Below are positions 1-12,432 of a DNA stretch of 12,432 nt, one piece after another. Both the position numbers and the translations under genes were made by a program. Numbering within the stretch: position 1 is the first letter of the stretch; every line of letters begins with the position of its first letter. Source of the DNA: a virus (Duplodnaviria; Heunggongvirae; Uroviricota; Caudoviricetes); IMG/VR virus record IMGVR_UViG_2909246061_000008. One strand, 5' to 3'. The notes beneath the pieces are model-generated. The model ran no database searches, was not told the DNA's origin, and worked only from the letters and a program-made list of their open reading frames with translations.

Positions 1-411
1 ATGCCTGCCCCCGTCGTCCTGATCCTTGCGGCCGGGCGTGGAGAGCGCTTTCTCGCCTCCGGGGGAAATACCCATAAGTGTATCGGCTGGCGTCAGTCCC
101 CGGAGGTTGCGCCTTATCGCTGGCCATTTGAAGAAAACGGGAGAACTTTCGACCTTGCGATTGAACCGCAGATTACGACTAATGATCTGCGTCTGATGTT
201 GAGGCTGGCTCTTGCCGGCGGAGGAATAACAATTGCCACTCAGGAAACTTTCAGGCCATATATTGAAAGCGGTAAGCTTGTATCGCTGCTTGATGACTTT
301 CTTCCACAATTTCCGGGCTTCTATCTGTATTTCCCACAGCGTCGCAATATTGCACCAAAGCTCCGCGCCCTGATTGATTACGTCAAAGAATGGCGGCAGC
401 AATTGGCTTAA
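1..411 (+). CDS. LysR-family transcriptional regulator, C-terminal (effector-binding) portion; probably 5'-partial at the window edge
   Basis: ORF runs from base 1 to a stop at 409-411. The C-terminal pattern (FDLAIEPQITTNDLRLMLRLALAGGGITIATQETFRPYIESGKLVSLLDDF...) matches the typical end of a LysR substrate-binding domain. No helix-turn-helix N-terminus is present, so the gene most likely begins upstream of the window. G+C is host-like. Confidence 0.6.
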   Translation: MPAPVVLILAAGRGERFLASGGNTHKCIGWRQSPEVAPYRWPFEENGRTFDLAIEPQITTNDLRLMLRLALAGGGITIATQETFRPYIESGKLVSLLDDFLPQFPGFYLYFPQRRNIAPKLRALIDYVKEWRQQLA

Positions 412-670
412 ATGTCTGCACCTGCACTGCCTGATGTCAGAACAGTATTTTGATGAATTGCCAAGGTTACAATGGCACAAATACGGCACAGGAGGAAACG
501 TGGTGTATTTAAATATGGGGTAACTCTTTGATTTTAATGGTGCGATAATAGGAGTGAATATTACAAGCTAACACATTGATTTGTAATACATTATAATATT
601 CAAAAAATATAACTATACACATATCTATACACACTGCGTGTGTCGCTTGTTTTTCGCACAATTAAAAATA

Positions 671-795
671 AGAAAAAAAATTTTTTTCGAAAGAACTGTT
701 CACACTGTTCACCTTTCTGTTTTCTCCTTTTATTTCAGAGTGATAGGTGGTGAATAATGGGTGAAGGGTGAACATTCGATTCTTCACCTCCGGCA
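671..795. repeat. crr-like direct repeat, copy 1
   Basis: Aligns by eye with copy 2 at roughly 85-90% identity; contains three TGTTCACC-type octamers in both orientations. Confidence 0.7.
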
Positions 796-851
796 TTCTG
801 CCGGTGTGACTCATACCGGTGATTAATCCCCCGTACTGAAATCACTCAGGA

Positions 852-975
852 AGAAAAAAGTTTTTTTTGATTTGATTGTTCACACTGTTCACCTTTCGTT
901 TTTCTCTTTTAATTTCAGTATGATAACGGGTGAATATACGGTGAAGGGTGAACAGTGGATTGTTCACCTGCGGGG
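852..975. repeat. crr-like direct repeat, copy 2
   Basis: Aligns with copy 1; contains TGTTCACC at 886-893 and 961-968 and GGTGAACA at 947-954. Confidence 0.7.
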
Positions 976-986
976 GATATCGGGAT

Positions 987-1011
987 AAAAAAAGACCGGC
1001 AGATGCCGGTC
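987..1011 (-). terminator. Rho-independent terminator downstream of the alpha-like gene
   Basis: Stem GACCGGC (994-1000) pairs with GCCGGTC (1005-1011) around a 4-nt loop. On the minus strand the hairpin is followed by a T7 run (plus-strand A-run 987-993). It sits 17 bp past the alpha-like stop at 1028. Confidence 0.6.
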
Positions 1012-1027
1012 AGGTGGGTCATGAGGG

Positions 1028-2674
1028 TCAGGTTGTTGCAGGGTCGTCACATTTTGGCAGCCAGTCGCCGTAGCTTTCCTCTTTCAGCGTCAGGTTGGTC
1101 TGTATCCCCTGTTTGGTATGGCGCTTCTCGTAATTCAGTCCGTATTCCTTCAGCATCACCGGCAGCCCCAGCCCGAACATTTTCAGACTGAGTACATTCC
1201 GGTAGCCGTTTGCCTCCATGTAGGCCAGATAGGCGTGATAGAGGTATTTACGGTAATTACGCGGGATGATACTGGCGTTCCCCATATACATGCCGCTGGT
1301 CTGCGGCAGGGTTTCCAGATAGCCGATAAAATCAAACGTCGGGTCGGCATCCCGTTTGATGTTCAGCGCCTCGTCTGAGTTCTGCTGGGACTGAAGCAGT
1401 GACCGGGCGAGCATCGGGTCGCTGAACTTCTGCATCAGGTGACGCACGATGACCGCCAGCTCGCGGGTGATTTTGTCCTTAAGCTGCGGGTCGCGCTCCT
1501 GCGGGGCTATCTGTTCCGGGAAGTGAATAATCACCCGCCGGCGTGACACGCCGCCGCTGCGGTCGGTGAAGCGCATCGGGTTATTGTTCACGGCCAGAAT
1601 TACCGCCGGGATATGCGTGGAGTACGCATCCCGGTATTTCGGGTCCACGGACACCGCATCGCCGCCGGTGATGGCCTTGAGTCCGGCACCGTCGCCGCTC
1701 CATTTTTCCTGGTCCGGCAGGCGTATCAGTGAGAAGCCAGTTAACGCGGCACGTTCACGCGGGGATTCCAGCGTCTCGATGGTGGCCGACGTGGCGTTAT
1801 CCTCCCCGGCCAGCAGGGTGGCTATTTCGGCCATGATACTTTTGCCGCTGCCGCCGGGACCGGTCACCTCCAGAAAGAGCTGCCAGTCGTAGCGGTTTGC
1901 CAGCACCATAAACAGTGCGGCCAGAATCACGTCGCGTTTTTCCGCACGGCCACCGGCGGCACGGTCAAGCCAGCGCCAGAACGCGGGGGCGTGGGTTTCC
2001 AGCGTTTCCCCTTCCACCGGCGGGGTGAAATCCACATCGCACAGGGTGCGCATCCAGTGTGACGGACTGTGCGGGTGGAACGTGCCGTTCTGCGTGTCGA
2101 GCACGCCGTTACGAAAGCCAATCAGGCGGCGGGAGGGGGCTTCCTGCTGCGGAATAATCAGCTTCAGGGTGTCCACCACGGAGGCCACCTTCCCGGAGGA
2201 GAACGGCGCACGCAGCCGCTGAAACAGCCCGGCCACATCCCGGGCAAAGTCCTGTGGCGGCAGCACCTTCCAGACACCATTTTCATAGCGGGACAGAAGC
2301 TGGCCGTTGGCATCGACCGCGAGCGCCTCGCCGTAATGCTCATAGATACGCATGGCCTTTTCGCTGGTACTCATGGCGGAAAACTCCGCTTCGCTCATGG
2401 TGTCGAACGGGCTTTCAGCCGGTGGCCGGATGGCATCATAAATGGCCTTACGGGTGGCTTCCCCGCCGTACTGCGTGAAGGCATCATTCCAGTCACCGAA
2501 GACCGGCGGCAGGGCAACAACACCCTCACACGCATCTGCGGCTGCGGCGGCTTTTTTCTGGCCGTCACCGCTGAGGTCACGGTCTGCGGCAAGGACAATC
2601 TGACAGGCCGGATGCTTCTGCCGGGCAAGGCTGGCCAGAGAAAGGAGGTTCACGGAAGAAAGCGCCACCATCAC
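1028..2674 (-). CDS. P4 alpha-like primase/helicase, N-terminally truncated (TOPRIM remnant + SF3 helicase + C-terminal domain); possibly a pseudogene
   Basis: 548-aa ORF with a TOPRIM-like LAADRD motif near its start, Walker A GPGGSGKS, and an SF3-type motif C (ILAVNNNP). The reading frame stays open upstream to a stop at 2759-2761 (about 28 more codons) without reaching a primase N-terminal domain or a convincing start; the annotated start is GTG/ATG at 2674/2671. High G+C (~60%+). Adjacent to TGTTCACC iterons. Confidence 0.75.
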   Translation of the reverse strand: MMVALSSVNLLSLASLARQKHPACQIVLAADRDLSGDGQKKAAAAADACEGVVALPPVFGDWNDAFTQYGGEATRKAIYDAIRPPAESPFDTMSEAEFSAMSTSEKAMRIYEHYGEALAVDANGQLLSRYENGVWKVLPPQDFARDVAGLFQRLRAPFSSGKVASVVDTLKLIIPQQEAPSRRLIGFRNGVLDTQNGTFHPHSPSHWMRTLCDVDFTPPVEGETLETHAPAFWRWLDRAAGGRAEKRDVILAALFMVLANRYDWQLFLEVTGPGGSGKSIMAEIATLLAGEDNATSATIETLESPRERAALTGFSLIRLPDQEKWSGDGAGLKAITGGDAVSVDPKYRDAYSTHIPAVILAVNNNPMRFTDRSGGVSRRRVIIHFPEQIAPQERDPQLKDKITRELAVIVRHLMQKFSDPMLARSLLQSQQNSDEALNIKRDADPTFDFIGYLETLPQTSGMYMGNASIIPRNYRKYLYHAYLAYMEANGYRNVLSLKMFGLGLPVMLKEYGLNYEKRHTKQGIQTNLTLKEESYGDWLPKCDDPATT

Positions 2675-2895
2675 CGTTTCACCGGTCAGGTGATGTACGG
2701 TACCATAACTGTAGTGAATGTCTGTTATGAGCGAGGGGCGGAAGTTCGGAATGCATACTTACTTCGATGTGTGTTAAGCAATGGGGGCAGGTCGGCAATT
2801 TATTGTAAAAGCGATAACACTAACAGCATTAGTGAAGAGGCTAAAGATTTGTTTAGAACCCGCCCCCTTAAGAGGCGGTATTCTTGGCAAACATT

Positions 2896-5800
2896 TTATT
2901 TACTGTTTATCAATTGCAATAATGGGATCTCAGCTACATCACTAGGAATATAGGGGTCATCTTCTTTTAAATTAACCCCAATACAATCAACATCATTTAA
3001 CCCAATTTCCCAAGCCCACCTAACATCTAACGTACTCATTTCTATCCCTAAACTATCTCTTTGTGGATGCTCAGGAACAATATTTTTTAACATCGCATCA
3101 CATCCAAGATAGAATTTTCCACAGGCCTGATACGCAGCAAGAAATCTTTCTAAATTGACGTTACTATCAGGAGTCATCGTATTAATTCTACTGATCATTG
3201 TCATTCTTTTAGTTAATGGCGTTGTCATCATATTTTCAGATATCAGCACTCTATAATGATTTGGGTTTTTAACTGAAATACCCTTGACAATACAAACCCG
3301 TAATCTGGCTTTACTATCTACCAAGCCTACTGATGATATAAGATCTTTAAAAATATCCTCACCTATATTGGGGTGTTTAAATAATAGATATAACCCTGGA
3401 TAACACGATTTTAATTGAGCGAAGCCTACTCCTTGCCAGCGTGTTCTATCCCATAGACGAGGCTTGATTAGACTTTGTATTGAATAATCTTTATGCGTTA
3501 TATTTTCGGAATTAAGTTCCTCTTCAGGCATTATTCCTTTACCAGGTGTTGGAACATTTACATCCTCGATCTCCAACACTTTCGGAAATTCACTATCCCA
3601 GGGTTTATCTCTTAAAAGAGGGTAAGTTTTCTTTTCAGCACTGGTGGAATAAATTTTCTTAATTTGTTGATCAATATCATTTCCAAGAACATTTTCAATA
3701 GCTTTGATACAGGCACCGAAACTAATTGCTCTGTCAAATGCAGCATCTTCGAATATCATTCTTTCAATGTATTCTGTATTTTTTGTAAAAAATAACTCAG
3801 GGAGAAGATCAAATACTATTTTCTTGAATTCATTAGTAATTTTTTGTTGAGCATCGACTCTAAATGAACTTGTTTCAAAACCATTGCAATTTATAGTAAG
3901 GTTTAGTTTTCCATTATTGCTATTTATTTCATGTGATAAGGAGAAGTCATCTTCATCATCTGCTATTACTTCAATAATTAAAAATGCTTCTTTCAGATGG
4001 ATGTTATCAATCGTACAAGTTGCAAAAGCACTCTCTAAAAGCGCTAAGATACTAGTTGAAAACTCTATAAATGGTGACCGATTCGGAAAGTTAATTTCTA
4101 TAGTGCATCCAAAAATAAAAGATGTATATATTCCTCGTTTATCATAGTTATCTTTTATGCCTTTACTATTGAATCCAGCATCAAAGTCACGTATTTCTTG
4201 CAAGAAATCATTATGATCTTTATCGGCAGTAACTTCATACTCATGTTCAAAATTTTCAATATAACCTAAAGCATATTTAAGACATCCAGATGATACAAAA
4301 AGACCTAATCTATCGAGTTCATCGGGAATATTACTCTGTCGATTTATTCCATTTAGGTCAGTGTTCAAAATGAGTTGACTTATGTAAAAATCAACTTGCT
4401 GATTTTCTTTATCGCCGAACGAACTTTCACTGATATTTTGGTTAATTATTAAAAACAGTTCATACCATAAAAGAGCATGTGCTAATTTCCCTAGTTTTAT
4501 TTCTGCCAGGCATAAACTATAATAAATCTCAGCCTGCTTTAATGATATCTCATCATACTTCCAGTAGTTATCTGTAATCAAAGAAGCGGATAGAAGCAAG
4601 CATGAACGTGAACTCCATAGCAACCCAATGGATTCGTAAGCATAAGCAATAGCTTTTAATGCTAATATAAATTTATCTCGTGATTCCTCTTTATAGAGTG
4701 GTATAAATGATTTTCCTAAATACTTGATTGCCTGATAAGGGTGACCATTTTGAATCCTCTTTATACCTCTTCGTAGATTTAATAATGCCCCTTTAACTTC
4801 ACCACCTCTAACAGCAGATTGCTCAGTCATATAGTCTAATAAATTTTCATATGCATCTACCTCGAAAAAAATGTCATCCAGTTCGTTCAAAAGTTGGAAG
4901 TTCTTCTCAAAGGAATAGCCTATTAAATTCCCACTATTTTTAAAAATTTCATGTAACTCTTCAAATACAACCGAAGCATCTTCTACATCTGAAAACGTTG
5001 TCAATTTATAAATAGCTTTGTGAGTTCTCGCTGTGAGTGCATTACTGGGACGTGATTCATCGTCAGCTATCTCATCTAGTTTAGCGAGCATGTTACGTTC
5101 AATATTCTCAATATCGATTGTAGATGTTGCGTTGTTAAGTCTAATATAACTTTTATGAACGGTTACTAAATTTAAAACTTTCTCCCATTTTGAGGAATTA
5201 GTTGATGATGCAATACTTTCATATGCAAATTGAAGATTTTCTTCAAAGAGATTAAAATCTTCCATCCAAAAATGAGACTTCCAGGCATATTGATAATACG
5301 CATCTAGCAATTGTTGATTAGTCCCGAATTTCTTTGATATTTTTATAGCTCTTTCAAATAGACCTTGTGTTTCAATTAGTGGTTTCTCAAGTTCAGCGCT
5401 TAACTCTGCAATTTCTAAAAAAATATCCACCTGTTCATATGAAATTTCAGCAGGGTTTATTTTCTCTCTAATATACTCGGTTAACTCTTCATATTTTTTA
5501 TGCTTTTTATAATCATTTTCTCCAAAAATAACTTCTCTTTTATATTGCGTTGGAACTGACAATGAATCAATGGCCAATTGCTCAAAATTATTTTTGTAAA
5601 TTTGATCTAATAGCCAATTAATATCTAATATACGAACATCTATTCCAGTTTTTGTTTTTAGTGTATCCTCAACCTCTGAACGAATATTGGACTTTGCAGA
5701 CTGGTTCGTTACGCAAAATACTTTAGCATACCCACGTTCTGTTTCTTTTATCTTAAGTACATCTTCATGGCATTTTTTCTTCCAGTCTTTACGTGTACTT

Positions 5801-6147
5801 ACCGCAAAGGCCCAGCGTTCTCTATTTGATGCTTCATTAACGCCTTCGAACCAAAGAAGCTTATTCTGTTCTGAAACAGGGAATGTTTGTGTGTCAGTTT
5901 TACCATCCCCCCCTGCTACAGGGCCAGTTTGTTCAAGGAGATTAGGGCAAATTATTTTTTCACATATTTTTTTTGCAAAATCTTCGAATTGTAGTTCTTG
6001 ATTTCTTGTATTTAGCGTAGAGAGGAAGTGTTCCAGTACAACTCTGTCTAAAGTACCAGTCTCTCTGATTGTTGAATCAGAAAATTTTTCAGGGCGACGG
6101 CGCCTTAGAAATTCTTTAGATGAAAATTTGGTTTTCTGTACATTCAT
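2896..6147 (-). CDS. Large hypothetical protein (1083 aa) encoded in a low-G+C cargo block; function unknown, candidate stand-alone defence/abortive-infection protein
   Basis: Single uninterrupted 3252-nt ORF. G+C is about 30-35% against ~55-65% in the flanks. A GAGGAG Shine-Dalgarno lies ~10 nt upstream of the ATG at 6147-6145, which overlaps the stop of the truncated stf (ATGA). Composition is Lys/Glu/Asn/Ile/Phe-rich, with helical repeat-like stretches in the middle. No Walker A (GxxxxGK[ST]) was found. The N-terminus carries GPVAGGDGKTD (aa 75-85), weakly reminiscent of an Mrr-type nuclease motif. Confidence 0.8.
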   Translation of the reverse strand: MNVQKTKFSSKEFLRRRRPEKFSDSTIRETGTLDRVVLEHFLSTLNTRNQELQFEDFAKKICEKIICPNLLEQTGPVAGGDGKTDTQTFPVSEQNKLLWFEGVNEASNRERWAFAVSTRKDWKKKCHEDVLKIKETERGYAKVFCVTNQSAKSNIRSEVEDTLKTKTGIDVRILDINWLLDQIYKNNFEQLAIDSLSVPTQYKREVIFGENDYKKHKKYEELTEYIREKINPAEISYEQVDIFLEIAELSAELEKPLIETQGLFERAIKISKKFGTNQQLLDAYYQYAWKSHFWMEDFNLFEENLQFAYESIASSTNSSKWEKVLNLVTVHKSYIRLNNATSTIDIENIERNMLAKLDEIADDESRPSNALTARTHKAIYKLTTFSDVEDASVVFEELHEIFKNSGNLIGYSFEKNFQLLNELDDIFFEVDAYENLLDYMTEQSAVRGGEVKGALLNLRRGIKRIQNGHPYQAIKYLGKSFIPLYKEESRDKFILALKAIAYAYESIGLLWSSRSCLLLSASLITDNYWKYDEISLKQAEIYYSLCLAEIKLGKLAHALLWYELFLIINQNISESSFGDKENQQVDFYISQLILNTDLNGINRQSNIPDELDRLGLFVSSGCLKYALGYIENFEHEYEVTADKDHNDFLQEIRDFDAGFNSKGIKDNYDKRGIYTSFIFGCTIEINFPNRSPFIEFSTSILALLESAFATCTIDNIHLKEAFLIIEVIADDEDDFSLSHEINSNNGKLNLTINCNGFETSSFRVDAQQKITNEFKKIVFDLLPELFFTKNTEYIERMIFEDAAFDRAISFGACIKAIENVLGNDIDQQIKKIYSTSAEKKTYPLLRDKPWDSEFPKVLEIEDVNVPTPGKGIMPEEELNSENITHKDYSIQSLIKPRLWDRTRWQGVGFAQLKSCYPGLYLLFKHPNIGEDIFKDLISSVGLVDSKARLRVCIVKGISVKNPNHYRVLISENMMTTPLTKRMTMISRINTMTPDSNVNLERFLAAYQACGKFYLGCDAMLKNIVPEHPQRDSLGIEMSTLDVRWAWEIGLNDVDCIGVNLKEDDPYIPSDVAEIPLLQLINSK

Positions 6148-7571
6148 GATTTTGACGCTCCTCTTGCTATCCCCTTTTTCGTCGTACTTGCATCCTCAAG
6201 CGCCACGGCGGATGCAATATCCTCTGCCCGTTTTGCCGCTGTCTCGGCGCGCGTTGCCGCGGATTCCGCCGTACTTTTGCTCTGTGCTGCCGCCGTCGCA
6301 CTGCCAGCTGCCTCTGTCGCCTTCGTGGATGCTGTCGTGGCGCTGCCCTTCGCTGCGGACGCTTGTCTGGTCGCCTCATCTTTTGAAGCAGACGCCGATG
6401 ATGCCGATGACGCCGCCGAACTGGCGGACGATGCCGCTGCCGTTTTTGAGGATTCTGCGCTGGTTTCCGACGCTTTCGCGTTCGTCTCGGATGTCTTCGC
6501 TGCGGAAGCAGACCTCGCTGCTGCGCTGGCCTGTTCAGTGGCTTCGCCAGCCTTCGTTGTGGCTGTTGAAGCAGACGATGCGGCACTTTCTGCCGATTTT
6601 CCGGCGGCGGTGGCACTGGCTGAGGCCTGCCCGGCACTTGTTGACGCGGCACTGGCAGACGACGCAGCCGCTGTTTTTGAGCCTGCCGCAGCCGAGGCGC
6701 TCTGTCCCGCTGCCGTTTCAGAAGACCTGGCGTTTGTCTCAGACGTCTTTGCCGCCTTCGCGGAATTGCCTGCCGCCGTTGCCGAGGAAGCGGCACTACT
6801 GGCGCTTGATGATGCGTTCGTTTCTGATGATTTCGCTGCCTCTTTTGAGGCCGCCGCATCCCGGGCTGAGGTGGCTGCTTCTGACGCCTTCGTGGTCGCG
6901 GCGGATGCAGAAGTGGCTGCTGATTGTTGTGACGCTGCCGCATTCGTTTCTGACGTTTTCGCCGCACCGGCACTGGTAGCTGCCGCGCTTTTTGAGGACT
7001 CTGCAGCAGCAGCACTTTTCGATGCTTCACTGGCCTTTGTTGATGCCGTTCCTGCGCTGGAAGTCGCTGACTGAGCCGACGACGCGGCCTGTCCGGCTGA
7101 CGTGCTGGCTGCGCGTGCTGAGCCTGCAGCATCAGTCGCATGGGTTGCCGCCTCACGGGCTGATGTGCTGGCATCACTGGCTGACTTCTTCGCGGCTGCC
7201 GTGTTCTGTGCCACCACGGACGCGTTACGCGCCACCTCTTCCACCATCAGCTCAAAACGGCGCAGTGCCTCCGGACGGGCATCATCCTCCGTCATGGCAC
7301 CGAGAAAATCATTCAGCGTACCGGGTCGGGAATCTTCATACACGGTAATGGTCCCGGCATGTGACGGCGGGAATCCTTCCACCAACAGACTGACGCTGTA
7401 CTGACCGTACTCAACGTCCATACTGTAACGCCCGGCTTCATCCGGATTTTCTGAGGCCAGCGTATTCACCACCACCGTGGTGCTGTTACGTTTTGCTTTC
7501 AGCTGGATTGTGCAGTTCTGTACCGGTTTTCCTGTGCCGTCTTTCAGTACACCTGAAATCTTTACTGCCAT
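6144..7571 (-). CDS. stf: Lambdoid side tail fibre protein Stf, N-terminal fragment, C-terminally truncated with 7 novel terminal codons
   Basis: N-terminus MAVKISGVLKDGTGKPVQNCTIQLKA... matches my recollection of lambda Stf, followed by an Ala/Ser/Thr-rich low-complexity region. Similarity ends after ...EDASTTKKGI; the tail ARGASKS is encoded by the junction sequence. ATG at 7571-7569 is preceded by a GGGGTGA Shine-Dalgarno; the ORF track's longer form starts at GTG 7577. Confidence 0.8.
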   Translation of the reverse strand: MAVKISGVLKDGTGKPVQNCTIQLKAKRNSTTVVVNTLASENPDEAGRYSMDVEYGQYSVSLLVEGFPPSHAGTITVYEDSRPGTLNDFLGAMTEDDARPEALRRFELMVEEVARNASVVAQNTAAAKKSASDASTSAREAATHATDAAGSARAASTSAGQAASSAQSATSSAGTASTKASEASKSAAAAESSKSAAATSAGAAKTSETNAAASQQSAATSASAATTKASEAATSARDAAASKEAAKSSETNASSSASSAASSATAAGNSAKAAKTSETNARSSETAAGQSASAAAGSKTAAASSASAASTSAGQASASATAAGKSAESAASSASTATTKAGEATEQASAAARSASAAKTSETNAKASETSAESSKTAAASSASSAASSASSASASKDEATRQASAAKGSATTASTKATEAAGSATAAAQSKSTAESAATRAETAAKRAEDIASAVALEDASTTKKGIARGASKS

Positions 7572-7582
7572 ATTCACCCCAC

Positions 7583-7609
7583 AAAAAAGCCCGCCTGAAC
7601 CGGCGGGCT
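7583..7609 (-). terminator. Rho-independent terminator between lom and stf
   Basis: 8-bp GC-rich stem (AGCCCGCC 7588-7595 with GGCGGGCT 7602-7609) around a 6-nt loop. On the minus strand it is followed by a T6 run (plus-strand A-run 7583-7588). Confidence 0.55.
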
Positions 7610-7635
7610 GTCATAACACTGTGTTACCTGGCTAA

Positions 7636-8235
7636 TCAGAATTTATAACCGACACCCATGATGAAACCGTCAGTGCGCCAGTCGCCACTGCCGGAGCCTT
7701 CATAAGCAATATCAATGGCCACGGATTCGGTCGGGTTAAACTGCACGCCAGCTCCCCACGCCAGAGACGTGTTGCTGTGGCGACCGTCATCACTTCCGGT
7801 CAGCACGTCGTGCGTTTTCCCCTTGTTGTCAGTTACGCGGAGATAATCCCCGGAGAAAGTCGACACACGGCTGTAAGCCACACCCGCCATCGCATACGCG
7901 CTGAACCATTCATTCACGCGCACAGACGGCCCCGCCATCACGCTGAACCAGCGGTTACGAACGGAATCTTCATGCCAGCGGGTATCGCTGTAACGGGTAA
8001 GCTGGCGATTCTTGTCTCCTGCATAGCTGAATGACGTCACTATCCCCAGTGTGTCCGTAAACTCATAACGGTATTTCACGTTAATCCCGTTCAGATCATC
8101 ACTGCCGGGAACGTTGGTCCGGGCATGAAGATACCCCGCGCTCAGCGTGGACTGATGTTCAGATGCCCATGCAGGCGCACCGGATACGGCCAGACAAATG
8201 GCTGCGGACAAAATGGCGGCATAAAGTTTACGCAT
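7636..8235 (-). CDS. lom: Lom-like outer membrane protein (Ail/Lom family)
   Basis: 199-aa ORF with a signal peptide ([24 protein letters not shown]) and the C-terminus ...[25 protein letters not shown] typical of Ail/Lom beta-barrels. A GAGAGG Shine-Dalgarno lies 6 nt upstream. Its position between the I fragment and stf mirrors lambda J-lom-stf order. Confidence 0.9.
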
Positions 8236-8257
8236 AATTACCTCTCGCTTTTCTGCA

Positions 8258-8284
8258 ATAAAAAAGGCACCATTTCTGGTGCCC
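8258..8284 (-). terminator. Rho-independent terminator upstream of lom and downstream of the I fragment
   Basis: Stem GGCACC (8266-8271) pairs with GGTGCC (8278-8283) around a 6-nt loop. On the minus strand it is followed by TTTTTTATT (plus-strand A-run 8258-8265). Confidence 0.5.
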
Positions 8285-8304
8285 TTATATGGGTTATAAC
8301 AATT

Positions 8305-8697
8305 TCAACGAATACTGATGCCGGAAGCGACTTTTTTGGTCACAATCACCGTACAGTCGGTGATATTACCTGCCCACTGATTGCCTTTATGGAAAACCTT
8401 AAACTCCAGAGTGACGCTTCCCCTGCCACTCGGCATATCAATAATCGCACTGTAGCTACCGGGAAGACGGGCTGATAATTCATTTTCGCCTGCATCACGC
8501 CCGGCAATGCGCACCTGATACCAGCCCTCATTCACTTTCTGGCGAAACGACGGAAGCTGCGTGGCCAGCGCCCGGATGGCTTCGGCCCCCGTTTTCACAC
8601 GAAGGTCGATGCGGTGGCCAAATCGTTGTAAATCCCCGTAAAGGCAGATGCGTGCCATGCCCGGTGACGCCAGAGGGAGTGTGTGCGTCGCTGCCAT
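8305..8697 (-). CDS. Lambdoid tail assembly protein I, N-terminal ~80 aa joined to an unrelated ~50-aa C-terminus; J is absent
   Basis: The first ~80 residues (MAATHTLPLASPGMARICLYGDLQRFG...WYQVRIAGRD) match my recollection of lambda gpI, then the sequence diverges (AGENELSARLPGSY...VASGISIR). The ORF is 130 aa against ~223 expected. No J-sized ORF lies between it and lom. Confidence 0.65.
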   Translation of the reverse strand: MAATHTLPLASPGMARICLYGDLQRFGHRIDLRVKTGAEAIRALATQLPSFRQKVNEGWYQVRIAGRDAGENELSARLPGSYSAIIDMPSGRGSVTLEFKVFHKGNQWAGNITDCTVIVTKKVASGISIR

Positions 8698-9347
8698 TTG
8701 TCGGTATACCTCTCTCGTTTGCTCAGTTGTTCAGGAATATGGTGCAACAGCTCGCCGTCGCCGCAGTAAATGGCGGCATGATTCGGCACCGATGAACCAA
8801 AACAGCACAGCAGCACATCGCCCGGTTGTGCTGATGACAACGGCACCTGATACAGCCCTGTGGCCTCCAGATTATCCAGATAGAGATTCTGACCGTGACG
8901 CCACCAGTCATCCCCGCGATGAAAATCCGGCATCTCAATTCCCGCCAGATGGTAAGCATCCCGGAACAGCGTGTAACAGTCCGTCACCCCGTGCTCAAAG
9001 CGCCGCCCGGTGAGATGCGGCACACAGCGGAATTTATGAATCGCCCCCCGGCAGACCAGCCACCACGGCAAATCACTCTGCACCTGCAGCCGCCGGTCGG
9101 TCTCACTCAGCCAGGGCAGACCACCGGGGTGGCTGTGGACCAGCGCCACAATCTCACCCTGCATCTCTGCCCGCAGCCAGTCCTCCGGCGACATCCGGAA
9201 ATACTCCTCCGGCTCACCGGAGATATTCACGCAGGGAAAATATCTTTCCCCCTCCGGTGTTCTCACCACGAAGCCGCACGACTCCGCTGGCGCACATCGC
9301 CGGGCGTGCGCCAGAATCGCTGATTCTGTCTCTGTCATGGGATTCAC
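8595..9347 (-). CDS. Lambdoid tail assembly protein K (JAB/MPN + NlpC/P60 domains)
   Basis: HSHPGG (JAB-like) motif and a Cys/His pair (..DCYTLF.., ..PNHAAIY..) typical of NlpC/P60. Near-lambda-like by recollection. GTG at 9347 overlaps the L stop (GTGA); an alternative ATG lies at 9338. The 3' end overlaps the I start by ~100 nt, as in lambda. Confidence 0.85.
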   Translation of the reverse strand: MNPMTETESAILAHARRCAPAESCGFVVRTPEGERYFPCVNISGEPEEYFRMSPEDWLRAEMQGEIVALVHSHPGGLPWLSETDRRLQVQSDLPWWLVCRGAIHKFRCVPHLTGRRFEHGVTDCYTLFRDAYHLAGIEMPDFHRGDDWWRHGQNLYLDNLEATGLYQVPLSSAQPGDVLLCCFGSSVPNHAAIYCGDGELLHHIPEQLSKRERYTDKWQRRTHSLWRHRAWHASAFTGIYNDLATASTFV

Positions 9348-9718
9348 TGCGAAAGTTTGTTAATGGAAAGGAAGCCGCCAAAGTTGCCGACGTTATTGCG
9401 AAACTTACAGCCGCTCAGGCATTTGCTGCATTTATCCTTCGTGATATCGGACGTCGGCTGATCATATTCATCCGCGACCGCCGGACCGTGATAACCGCAC
9501 TCATCACCGCGATAGGTCCAGGTGCAGGTGTTGGCCAGCATGATACGTCCCGGAAAAACGGCACCGTCCGTTTCCGTCGGCGTGGACAGTACAAAAGAGG
9601 CACTCACCGCGCTCAGTTCGCTGCACTGCTCGATGCGCCAGCGGCTGATCACCTCCTGCTCCGGATCGGCGTCACTGTTTCCGTTGACGAAGTTCACCGC
9701 ATCCAGATACCGTCCTTT
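9344..9718 (-). pseudogene. Lambdoid minor tail protein L, 5'-truncated (C-terminal ~125 codons only)
   Basis: Translation (K)GRYLDAVNFVNGNSDADPEQEVISRWRIEQ...FGGFLSINKLSQ matches the C-terminal part of lambda L as I recall it. An in-frame stop at 9719-9721 cuts off the N-terminal half, and the similarity ends exactly where the inverted repeat begins. Confidence 0.7.
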
Positions 9719-9720
9719 TT

Positions 9721-9809
9721 ACAAAACAGAGAAGAGCATCACCGGACGACGGGCTCATAACCCAATCCATCCGGGCGGCAGTCACCGCAGGTGTTCTTCT
9801 CTGTTTTGT
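9721..9809. repeat. Perfect 15-bp inverted repeat (ACAAAACAGAGAAGA / TCTTCTCTGTTTTGT) flanking a 59-bp spacer
   Basis: Arms at 9721-9735 and 9795-9809, read directly. It abuts the L truncation point and lies ~50 bp upstream of the yfdP-like start. Confidence 0.8.
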
Positions 9810-9857
9810 GGAGAAACTAACCGACCTTGCAGGGTCGATATGATGAGGAGCAGCAAA

Positions 9858-10220
9858 ATGGCTAGCGAACGCAGTACTGATGTGCAGGCATTTATCGGGG
9901 AGCTGGACGGCGGCGTATTTGAAACCAAAATCGGCGCAGTTCTCAGTGAAGTCGCTTCCGGTGTGATGAACACGAAAACCAAAGGTAAGGTCTCGCTCAA
10001 CCTGGAAATCGAACCGTTTGATGAGAACCGAGTGAAAATCAAACACAAACTCTCATATGTTCGCCCGACTAACCGCGGGAAAATTTCCGAAGAAGACACC
10101 ACCGAAACGCCGATGTATGTCAATCGCGGTGGTCGCCTGACTATTCTGCAGGAAGACCAGGGACAGTTACTGACTCTTGCCGGTGAACCTGACGGAAAAC
10201 TCCGCGCAGCAGGTCGTTAA
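9858..10220 (+). CDS. yfdP: YfdP-like prophage protein (120 aa), function unknown
   Basis: ATG at 9858 is preceded by GAGGAG at a suitable spacing. Length and gene order (followed by yfdQ/R/S/T-like genes) match the E. coli CPS-53 block as I recall it. The ORF track's longer form (from 9522) runs through the inverted repeat and is unlikely to be real. Confidence 0.6.
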   Translation: MASERSTDVQAFIGELDGGVFETKIGAVLSEVASGVMNTKTKGKVSLNLEIEPFDENRVKIKHKLSYVRPTNRGKISEEDTTETPMYVNRGGRLTILQEDQGQLLTLAGEPDGKLRAAGR

Positions 10221-10285
10221 TATCGTTTTTAATTAACTGATTATTTATCTCATCACTGAATATCTTTATATAGTGAGGACTTATT

Positions 10286-11110
10286 ATGTCTCAGAACTTA
10301 GACGCAACCGCAATTAATCAAATCCATGCCCTTATTTCTGCTCAGGGTGTTAATGAAATTATCAGTAAGATTGGTGCCGATGCTGTGGCATTGCCTGAGA
10401 ATTTCCGCATTCATGATCTGGAAAAATTTAATTTAAATCGCTTCCGTTTCCGTGGTGCGCTTTCCACTGCCAGCATCGATGACTTTACCCGTTATTCTAA
10501 AGATCTTGCAGATGAAGGCACCCGCTGCTTTATCGATGCTGATAATATGCGTGCCGTCAGTGTGCTTAACCTGGGTACTATTGATGAACCAGGTCACGCA
10601 GATAACACCGCCACACTCAAACTGAAAAAGACAGCACCGTTCTCTGCTCTGTTGTCTGTTAACGGCGAGCGTAACTCCCAGAAGTCACTAGCAGAATGGA
10701 TTGAAGACTGGGCCGACTATCTTGTGGGCTTTGATGCTAATGGTGACGCTATTCAGGCAACAAAAGCGGCTGCGGCTGTCCGTAAAATCACGATTGAAGC
10801 AAACCAGACCGCTGATTTTGAAGATAATGACTTCAGCGGCAAACGCTCCCTGATGGAGTCTGTCGAAGCGAAGACCAAAGACATTATGCCAGTGGCATTT
10901 GAATTTAAATGCGTTCCGTTTGAAGGTCTGAAAGAACGTCCGTTTAAATTACGCCTCAGTATTATCACTGGCGATCGTCCTGTACTGGTTCTGCGCATTA
11001 TTCAGCTGGAGGCGGTGCAGGAAGAAATGGCTAACGAATTTCGTGATCTGCTTGTTGAGAAATTCAAGGACAGCAAAGTAGAAACCTTTATTGGTACTTT
11101 CACCGCCTGA
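10286..11110 (+). CDS. yfdQ: YfdQ-like protein (274 aa; DUF2303 family by recollection)
   Basis: Clean ORF with a GAGGA Shine-Dalgarno 6 nt upstream. The 274-aa length matches YfdQ, and its position in the yfdP-T-like block is consistent. Confidence 0.7.
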
Positions 11111-11122
11111 TTTCATTACTGC

Positions 11123-11144
11123 AAATGCCCCTGCGGGGGCATTT
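11123..11144 (+). terminator. Hairpin (possible intrinsic terminator or attenuator) between yfdQ and yfdR
   Basis: 9-bp stem AAATGCCCC (11123-11131) pairs with GGGGCATTT (11136-11144) around a 4-nt loop; the U-tract is short and embedded in the stem. Confidence 0.4.
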
Positions 11145-11237
11145 ATGGAAACGTAATTTACTCAATAATCGCCGGATGGTGAGGGATTCTTTTTGCCAGA
11201 ATTCAGCGCGGTGCAGCGCATATACGTGGAGAACAAA

Positions 11238-11774
11238 ATGTCATTTATTAAAACTTTTTCCGGGAAGCATTTTTATTATGACAGGATAAATAAAGACGAC
11301 ATCGATATTAACGATATCGCGGTTTCCCTTTCAAATATCTGTCGCTTTGCCGGTCATCTTTCGCACTTCTACAGCGTCGCCCAACATGCGGTTCTTTGCA
11401 GCCAGCTGGTGCCGCAGGAATTTGCTTTTGAAGCGTTAATGCATGATGCAACAGAAGCGTATTGCCAGGACATTCCCGCACCACTGAAACGCCTTCTTCC
11501 TGACTATAAACAAATGGAAGAAAAAATAGACGCCGTAATCCGTGAGAAATACGGGTTACCCCCAGTTATGAGTACGCCCGTGAAATATGCCGATCTCATC
11601 ATGCTGGCAACCGAACGCCGCGATCTCGGGCTTGATGATGGCTCTTTCTGGCCTGTACTGGAAGGTATCCCGGCAACAGAGATGTTCAACGTGATTCCAC
11701 TGGCACCGGGCCATGCCTACGGGATGTTTATGGAACGCTTTAACGAGTTATCGGAGTTACGCAAATGCGCATGA
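11238..11774 (+). CDS. yfdR: HD-domain phosphohydrolase, YfdR-like 5'-deoxynucleotidase (178 aa)
   Basis: HD-domain signature (H...H spacing then LMHDATEAY). ATG at 11238 is preceded by GGAG 7 nt upstream; the ORF track's longer form from 11193 lacks a good start context. Length matches YfdR. Confidence 0.8.
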   Translation: MSFIKTFSGKHFYYDRINKDDIDINDIAVSLSNICRFAGHLSHFYSVAQHAVLCSQLVPQEFAFEALMHDATEAYCQDIPAPLKRLLPDYKQMEEKIDAVIREKYGLPPVMSTPVKYADLIMLATERRDLGLDDGSFWPVLEGIPATEMFNVIPLAPGHAYGMFMERFNELSELRKCA

Positions 11775-12127
11775 ATATTTTCGAAATGGAAGGGTTTCTT
11801 CGTGGGAGATGTGTACCGCGAGATCTGAAAGTAAATGAAACAGATGCTGAATACCTGGTGCGTAAATTCGATGCGCTTGAAGCTAAATGTGCAGCACAGG
11901 AAAACAAAGTAATACCAGTGTCAACTGAACTGCCACCAGCAAATGAAAGTGTTTTGTTATTCGATGCTAACGGAGAAGGCTGGCTAATTGGCTGGCGTTC
12001 TCTCTGGTACACCTGGGGACAAAAAGAAACCGGAGAATGGCAGTGGACATTTCAGGTCGGGGACCTTGAAAACGTCAATATCACTCACTGGGCAGTAATG
12101 CCAAAAGCACCGGAGGCTGGAGCATAA
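11765..12127 (+). CDS. yfdS: YfdS-like protein (120 aa), function unknown
   Basis: ORF overlaps the yfdR 3' end by 10 nt, with GGAG upstream. Length and order match YfdS. Confidence 0.7.
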   Translation: MRMNIFEMEGFLRGRCVPRDLKVNETDAEYLVRKFDALEAKCAAQENKVIPVSTELPPANESVLLFDANGEGWLIGWRSLWYTWGQKETGEWQWTFQVGDLENVNITHWAVMPKAPEAGA

Positions 12128-12432
12128 TGACCACTTTTACCGACAAAGAACTGATTAAAGAAATTAAAGAGCGTATCAGCAGCCTTGACGTGCGAGACGA
12201 TATTGAGCGCCGTGCTTATGAAATCGCACTCCTATCTCTGGAAGTAGAACCAGATGAACGCGAAGCTTATGAATTATTCATGGAAAAGCGTTTCGGTGAC
12301 TTAGTAGATCGTCGGAGAGCAAAAAACGGCGATAACGAATACATGGCATGGGATATGACTCTCGGTTGGATCGTCTGGCAGCAACGAGCTGGTATCCATT
12401 TTTCAACAATGTCACAGCAAGAGGTGAAATAA
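12127..12432 (+). CDS. yfdT: YfdT-like protein (101 aa), function unknown
   Basis: Its start overlaps the yfdS stop by one nucleotide (TAATG), indicating translational coupling. A complete 101-aa ORF ends at the last base of the window. Confidence 0.7.
   Translation: MTTFTDKELIKEIKERISSLDVRDDIERRAYEIALLSLEVEPDEREAYELFMEKRFGDLVDRRRAKNGDNEYMAWDMTLGWIVWQQRAGIHFSTMSQQEVK

Follow-up and report, generated by a model that had tools for sequence, protein, structure and literature searches.

The DNA considered here is a stretch of 12,432 nucleotides, referred to below as the window, which carries a viral label in IMG/VR (IMGVR_UViG_2909246061_000008) and is a piece of the Escherichia coli chromosome. 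It belongs to the thrW tRNA island, where paoD, yagP, a 3′ fragment of thrW, the P4-type crr and the alpha gene follow one another in this order. Five complete E. coli genomes match the window from end to end with 99.6–100% identity. In strain PSS-10, the order is paoABCD, a LysR fragment (yagP of K-12), a P4-family primase pseudogene, a gene for a 1083-aa hypothetical protein, truncated lambdoid tail genes, Lom and yfdPQRST-type genes. A partial LysR gene follows paoD both in PSS-10 and in the empty-site strain FWSEC0010, and yagP was present as a fragment in all E. coli examined. Since the gene is also broken in strains with an empty site, where the order is paoD, yagP, thrW (tRNA-Thr) and proA, its condition has nothing to do with the P4 element. 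The coordinates of the features between yagP and the lambdoid DNA are collected in Table 1. As a side observation, the record OP434518.1, deposited as the 'complete genome' of the lambdoid phage phi458, carries at positions 1–411 a CDS that matches host yagP and is annotated as 'tail assembly protein', with IS1 and invertase fragments next to it; this first CDS looks like host flank or a mis-annotation in a phage record.

Table 1. Features of the thrW attR region, crr, the alpha remnant and the adjoining lambdoid arm (window coordinates).
Feature	Position	Strand	Basis and correspondence
yagP, LysR substrate-binding-domain fragment, host gene	1–411	+	Pfam LysR_substrate, E 1.4e-14; same 411-bp CDS as K-12 b0282
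Host intergenic flank, yagP to original thrW 3′ end	412–538	no strand	Sequence identical to K-12 as far as the thrW fragment
thrW 3′-end fragment, attR core (TGGTG-CGATAATAGGAGT)	539–556	-	One C fewer than thrW
Att-proximal arm (P′ arm) of thrW-specific satellite	557–673	no strand	Common to CUVET23-CCU17 and R8 satellites; unalignable to P4 4177–4290
Two tandem 12-mers, ATAACTATACAC and ATATCTATACAC, putative arm-type integrase sites	609–632	+	Repeat search
crr 120-bp direct repeat 1	674–793	+	Octamers at 697 and 706 (+), 749 and 767 (-), 781 (+); P4 4291–4410, annotated 'crr 120bp direct repeat'
crr inter-repeat spacer, 60 bp	794–853	no strand	P4 4411–4470
crr 120-bp direct repeat 2	854–973	+	Octamers at 877 and 886 (+), 929 and 947 (-), 961 (+); P4 4471–4590
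Rho-independent terminator t-alpha	987–1011	-	Hairpin GACCGGCATCTGCCGGTC followed by T7; P4 4604–4628, 'talpha'
alpha primase-helicase pseudogene, 3′ 72%, codons 224–777 and stop	1028–2702	-	BLASTP, Pfam, PGAP
Deletion junction, P4 alpha (P4 position 6310) to lambdoid prophage arm	2701–2704	no strand	2-bp overlap TA at 2701–2702
End arm of lambdoid-type prophage remnant, outside the P4 element	2703–2895	no strand	Also in DETEC-P80 and EC26

A repeat search of the window returned one family, composed of two 120-nt direct repeats that are 81% identical and whose start-to-start distance of 180 nt leaves a spacer of 60 bp between them. Each repeat opens with an A-tract/T-tract (A8T7 at 676–690 and A6GT8 at 853–867) and contains five copies of the octamer TGTTCACC in the orientation order + + - - +. 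With at most one mismatch allowed, this octamer occurs at 23 sites on the two strands of the 12.4-kb window, ten of them inside 697–968, against a mean of 8.96 ± 3.03 in 200 dinucleotide-preserving shuffles, none of which reached 23. An earlier sequence-only reading of this DNA had described two direct repeats of about 125 bp, separated by about 55 bp, at 671–975, which is close to the measured 120 bp, 60 bp and 674–973. It had also recognised the A-tract/T-tract at the start of each repeat and the presence of octamers in both orientations, and only its count of three octamers per repeat has to be raised to five. The same reading had placed the repeats downstream of an alpha-like gene, and the alpha-type gene is indeed found there on the minus strand, with the t-alpha hairpin itself, also on the minus strand, lying between the two at 994–1011.

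The identity of these repeats was addressed by a sensitive BLASTN search with window 600–1030 as the query against 50,697 phage records. Phage P4 was the sole match, window 674–1021 corresponding to P4 4291–4638 with 98.3% identity over 348 bp (E 6e-170), a segment annotated in the P4 GenBank record as crr and the alpha terminator. With a coordinate offset of 3617, the ten octamers coincide with the ten 'ori type 1 repeat' features of P4 crr, and pairwise alignment places the start of homology at the first base of crr and leaves all ten annotated repeats invariant, in agreement with the proposal of the sequence-only reading that the repeats correspond to P4 crr. When the whole window is compared by BLAST with the whole P4 genome, a single segment is retrieved, 674–2702 against P4 4291–6310, with 98.2% identity over 2029 bp. 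The two differ in length (2029 versus 2020 bp) through an indel that gives the window nine additional bases at 1019–1027, between t-alpha and the alpha stop codon. This insertion and a change at the C-terminus of alpha (...DDPAT, against ...DDPTT in P4) are probably without consequence.

The window therefore shares with P4 crr the sequence itself, the layout of two units of about 120 bp set about 60 bp apart, the five type I iterons of each unit in place and orientation, and the position behind alpha and its terminator. Judged by sequence, window 674–973 is P4 crr itself and not merely a crr-like element. What is missing is the origin partner in cis, that is, ori1 with its six type I iterons and AT-rich region, and the window crr is also unlike that of P4 in having neither a full-length alpha nor cnr in cis; without these companions it cannot serve its known role. 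It is thus crr by descent, without a part in a working replicon.

P4 alpha, a protein with primase, helicase and C-terminal origin-binding domains, binds type I iterons in ori1 and in crr, both of which are required in cis for P4 replication. Earlier work is said to have established the binding of alpha to the iterons of the two sites as well as the cis requirement of both, and crr is reportedly the cis-required partner either of ori1 or of ori2, which lies inside alpha. A second P4 replicon, silenced by Cnr, has reportedly been defined that consists of alpha, crr and ori2, the last located in the 'first half' of alpha. A recent preprint gives crr the name 'cis required region for replication' and regards it as indispensable for DNA replication, and a paper on P4 cosmids counts crr and the P4 origin among the cosmid parts.

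The association of such octamers with alpha extends to other Enterobacterales. For alpha homologues with at least 83% amino acid identity, the 600 bp that follow the gene mostly contain 5–11 TGTTCACC-type octamers, compared with less than two per 600 bp in the gene itself, and many of these homologues show a repeat period of 166–180 bp downstream. At 62–74% amino acid identity (Pantoea, Pectobacterium, Serratia, Yersinia and others; loci L059–L090), mostly 0–3 TGTTCACC sites are found in the same 600 bp; the crr equivalents of these homologues, if there are any, must use another iteron, presumably one that co-varies with the origin-binding domain. P4-type alpha and crr with 91–99% DNA identity to the window also appear in short metagenome-assembled contigs labelled Clostridiales, Ferruginibacter, 'bacterium' and Ruminococcus (L011–L014), which are most likely Enterobacterales contigs mis-binned into unrelated genomes.

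The gene that precedes crr is a remnant of alpha. Its stop codon lies at 1028–1030 on the minus strand, and its 554 codons run without a frameshift; in BLASTP, 551 of 553 residues are identical to residues 224–776 of P4 alpha. PGAP labels it 'phage/plasmid primase, P4 family; missing N-terminus'. Pfam recovers D5_N, DUF5906 (the helicase core) and Pox_D5, and Toprim_3 only partially, from profile position 21, and finds no match to Zn_Ribbon_Prim in the fragment, whereas the zinc ribbon and Toprim are both found in full-length P4 alpha. Since the P4 homology breaks off within alpha, at codon 224, the fragment has lost the zinc ribbon together with a portion of Toprim. The C-terminal 100 residues (448–547 of the 547-aa fragment) match PDB 1KA8 (E 5e-64), deposited as 'putative P4-specific DNA primase', which we take to be the P4 origin-binding domain. 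An in-frame stop is located 19 codons upstream of the junction between alpha and the lambdoid DNA, the first start codon of the fragment is an internal GTG/ATG without an evident signal, and a promoter scan detected no promoter-like site upstream of the fragment on the minus strand. In the absence of such a site, there is no case for expression of the fragment.

On the other side of crr, the boundary with the host chromosome has the structure of an attR. In most of 3844 genomes, homology to window 380–700 ends at about position 558. Alignment with K-12 and other strains takes the host homology to about 556–558, where it closes with the 18-nt core, the reverse complement of the thrW 3′ end short of one C. 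This core aligns with the 3′ end of tRNA-Thr in K-12 (ptwF), DETEC-P80 and strain R8 (thrW), and the same thrW core precedes crr in two intact satellites (L005 and L006). It is this duplicate of a tRNA 3′ end, at the limit between element and host, that identifies the site as attR. ARAGORN reported no tRNA gene and Rfam no RNA family in the window; the silence of ARAGORN on the att core is explained by the fact that only 18 nt of the tRNA are left. Nor does the window contain an integrase ORF. The P′ arm that follows the core has no homology to the leuX-type attP arm of P4, so that the attachment arm of the window is thrW-specific whereas that of P4 is leuX-specific. Within it, the two tandem 12-mers belong to a motif, CTATACAC, that occurs four times in the 28-kb R8 locus against 0.38 expected, twice at the positions equivalent to those of the window and twice beside the start of int near thrW. 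The 12-mers lie 53 bp from the core; in attP of P4, the distance between the core and the tandem 12-bp arm repeats is 54 bp, and further repeats stand at the start of int. From this geometry and recurrence, we infer that the 12-mers are probably arm-type integrase-binding sites.

The organization of intact satellites at thrW gives this arrangement its meaning. In those of CUVET23-CCU17 and R8, the flank, thrW′, the arm, crr and alpha (777 aa) are followed by orf106, orf151, epsilon, cI/icd, vis, sid, delta, psu, variable cargo, int, thrW and proA, and the CUVET23 element is collinear with P4 4291–11624 at 97.4% identity. The integrase and the intact tRNA therefore stand at attL, about 11 kb from crr, which is itself the outermost functional feature of the attR end. 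Their attR end is built as in the window, with a flank (yagP or other), the thrW′ core, the CTATACAC arm, crr and alpha; they differ in that they keep everything from alpha to the int gene beside thrW, whereas the window keeps only crr and alpha codons 224–777. According to PMC8628076, nearly half of E. coli genomes carry P4-like satellites. Among 5426 complete E. coli genomes, 447 have the same yagP-att-crr end, counted as a single match covering at least 80% of window 380–700, and crr as such is found in 1077 (about 20%), at 1319 places in all, always on the chromosome and never on a plasmid; its matches adjoin P4-type primase-helicase genes.

Because crr is the last feature before attR, it abuts the host DNA of yagP, and because it is outermost in intact satellites too, its place beside a host gene is the normal one. 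The idea of the sequence-only reading that the repeats were stranded next to a host gene, or captured, is therefore not sustained, as intact satellites show the same order of yagP, att, crr and alpha with int at the far end. That reading had also seen no integrase, att site or tRNA between the repeats and the LysR gene: it was correct as to the integrase and the tRNA gene, and mistaken as to the att site, of which both the core and the 12-mers are present. We also observed that, in the thrW satellites, P4 homology runs from the first base of crr (window 674, equal to P4 4291; 16295 in L005; 14155 in L006) to cos, and that the att arm, int and cargo to the left of crr are all replaced with respect to P4. 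Since P4 homology begins at crr and everything to its left is exchanged, the left edge of crr is a sharp boundary between the core and the integration/cargo module.

At its other end, the P4 segment is cut inside alpha. In alignments, homology to P4 and to an intact relative ends at window 2702, and the two halves of a probe spanning the junction (2560–2850) match different sets of genomes, the joined form being present in 5 of 5426. Past the junction, the window continues with the end arm of a lambdoid-type prophage, which in DETEC-P80 runs about 240 bp further, to its own 45-nt thrW fragment beside yagP, as an origin of the window by deletion in a tandem array would predict. No P4 DNA is present there. 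EC26 carries the same arm and the same 1083-aa gene at a prophage end. A site-specific integration of the lambdoid phage into alpha was considered and rejected, given that the arm of the relatives continues for 240 bp past the junction to its own thrW-type att. For the same reason, the junction is the end-point of an internal deletion, with a microhomology of 2 bp, and not the end of a prophage.

The lambdoid part of the window deserves some comment of its own. The 1083-aa ORF occupies 2896–6147 on the minus strand (WP_039268304.1, 'hypothetical protein'), has a GC content of 30–37% against 55–63% in its surroundings, and found no match in Pfam, PADLOC, NCBIfam, PHROGs or PDB sequences. It sits at the extremity of the lambdoid prophage, past the tail-fibre genes and with the thrW att end a few hundred bp away, a position typical of moron or defence genes. 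From 6144 to 12432, the window is a broken prophage mosaic that comprises an N-terminal tail-fibre fragment, Lom, fragments of J, I and L, and an intact C40 peptidase (K); yfdP-yfdT-type genes follow K on the opposite strand, and several independent deletions have occurred within 6 kb.

Apart from the crr-alpha segment, no other P4 DNA was found in the window or in the 48-kb PSS-10 locus, which contain no ori1, cos, sid, delta, psu, cI, epsilon or int. As regards ori1, the window shows no homology to P4 9086–9809 and no second iteron cluster, and none was found in the 48-kb locus either. The core genes of P4-like satellites are int, alpha, epsilon/ash, alpA, delta, sid and psu (PMC8628076). 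From this set, to which cos was added on the basis of the P4 record, the sole piece remaining here is the 5′-truncated alpha. The element around crr is consequently a remnant and not a satellite. The sequence-only reading had called the element decayed, and this is upheld by the loss of alpha codons 1–223 and by the lack of further P4 DNA in the window and in 48 kb; the call rests on the truncation of alpha and not on the missing integrase. In the sister strain ECCWS199 (NZ_CP032237.1, 19328–23264), the locus is 100% identical over window 1–1767 and then jumps to 7142, so that a further 5.4 kb (window 1768–7141) has been lost, whereas crr and the last ~246 alpha codons have been kept, the latter fused to a tail-fibre fragment. 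This additional loss indicates that deletional decay is continuing.

tRNA islands such as thrW/CP4-6 are classic prophage graveyards. The locus shares with the cryptic P4-type remnants of K-12 (CP4-6 at thrW, CP4-44 and CP4-57) the character of a deletion-ridden mosaic graveyard, and with CP4-6 in particular the same chromosomal island and an end that carries a thrW fragment next to this yagP flank. It differs from CP4-6 in that the latter has intF and other genes at its yagP end, together with a thrW fragment of about 45 nt that comes from a different integrating element, and carries no crr there.

The history that most simply connects these observations, as we reconstruct it, would start with the integration of a P4-like satellite into the 3′ end of thrW. 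A lambdoid phage would then have integrated at the regenerated thrW to give a tandem array, and an illegitimate deletion would have started 240 bp within the arm of the lambdoid prophage, crossed the att between the two elements and reached alpha codon 223. Such a deletion would have eliminated the N-terminal part of the primase, cnr, cI, epsilon, ori1, sid, delta, psu, cos, the cargo and int, leaving 2029 bp with crr, t-alpha and alpha codons 224–777. Among the genomes retrieved, none carries the tandem array in undeleted form. The remnant is recent and restricted to a lineage: the intactness of the iterons and of the alpha fragment is attributable to recency, in view of the near-identity of the five carriers from one end of the window to the other.

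Concerning present function, alpha provided in trans would very probably still bind to crr, since every iteron is identical to its P4 counterpart. As crr is the partner of an origin and not an origin, a plasmid carrying 671–975 would be expected not to replicate when alpha is supplied in trans. With no ori1, no primase-competent alpha and no cos or int, the remnant would sustain neither replication nor excision, packaging or transfer, and crr is most likely functionally inert, an orphaned cis site. Altogether, we hold it very likely that the locus is the remnant of a P4-like satellite at the thrW attR, whose crr is now an inert relic of a recent deletion. Both the identity of crr and the decay around it are already known biology; this is ordinary prophage decay and no new kind of element.

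Other explanations can be weighed against this one. That the repeats might be a generic intergenic repeat of E. coli, or a chance cluster unrelated to replication, finds support only in their intergenic position, and this explanation is refuted by their 98.3% identity to the experimentally defined P4 crr, by the P4-type primase-helicase genes that adjoin the matches in E. coli genomes, by the concentration of octamers after, and not inside, the closer alpha homologues, and by an octamer excess above all 200 shuffles; its probability is practically nil. Equally close to nil is the probability that crr and alpha were captured as a functional module of the adjacent lambdoid prophage. The P4 piece is physically fused to the lambdoid arm, yet no P4 DNA is present in lambdoid relatives that share this arm and the 1083-aa gene, the prophage is itself wrecked, its J, L and tail-fibre genes being truncated, and the P4 piece retains its own attR beside yagP.

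Less remote, and still very improbable, is the possibility that the orphan crr, with or without the alpha fragment or ori2, has a role in satellite infection, either as a decoy or dominant-negative or as a conditional amplification site. In its former version, which is itself improbable to the same degree, crr and perhaps the truncated alpha, with its helicase and origin-binding domains but no primase, would be retained for their usefulness, as a chromosomal decoy titrating alpha or as a dominant-negative fragment, and would hinder the replication of P4-like satellites that enter the cell or already reside in it. All ten alpha-binding octamers and the coding region of the origin-binding domain are intact, and two successive deletions have left both in place; in addition, strain E3, one of the five carriers, has a second alpha-type locus in its genome, so that alpha can meet an orphan crr in nature. 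Against this, the arrangement is confined to five genomes (plus the one further deleted) of 5426, with near-100% identity, so that selection has not had the time to become visible. A single chromosomal copy of the ten sites would moreover be a weak sink for the protein of a multicopy replicon, and a dominant-negative product has to contend with the lack of a promoter-like site, with the in-frame stop that lies upstream of the junction at a distance of 19 codons and with the internal GTG/ATG start without an evident signal. A near-unmutated remnant is predicted by a very recent deletion, yet it would also be seen under selection, and the fact that two independent deletions both spared crr and the part coding for the origin-binding domain carries little weight, as there are only two of them and crr lies at the edge of the element. 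The latter version, rated lower again, is that ori2, if it lies in the retained part of alpha, would be fired in situ, together with crr, by the full-length alpha of a superinfecting P4, with amplification of the neighbouring prophage genes. Alpha, ori2 and crr reportedly do form a replicon in P4, and codons 224–777 include part of the first half of alpha; however, 56% of that half has been deleted, and Cnr is said to silence ori2, while an infecting P4 brings cnr with it. The reading of the locus as a satellite remnant with an inert crr is therefore the one that we retain.

Beyond correct annotation, the finding matters little. In this respect, crr is unannotated in RefSeq E. coli genomes despite its presence in about 20% of the complete ones, and crr, the 18-nt thrW core and the arm repeats together mark the true attR boundary of thrW-type satellites, remnants included. 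The intact satellite, the remnant of the window and that of ECCWS199 form a stepwise series of decay, and strains like E3, in which an orphan crr coexists with a second alpha locus, offer natural material on the effect of orphan alpha-binding sites on satellite replication. Were the orphan crr to act as a decoy or as an amplified site after all, a dead satellite would still shape the conflicts between satellites, helpers and hosts.
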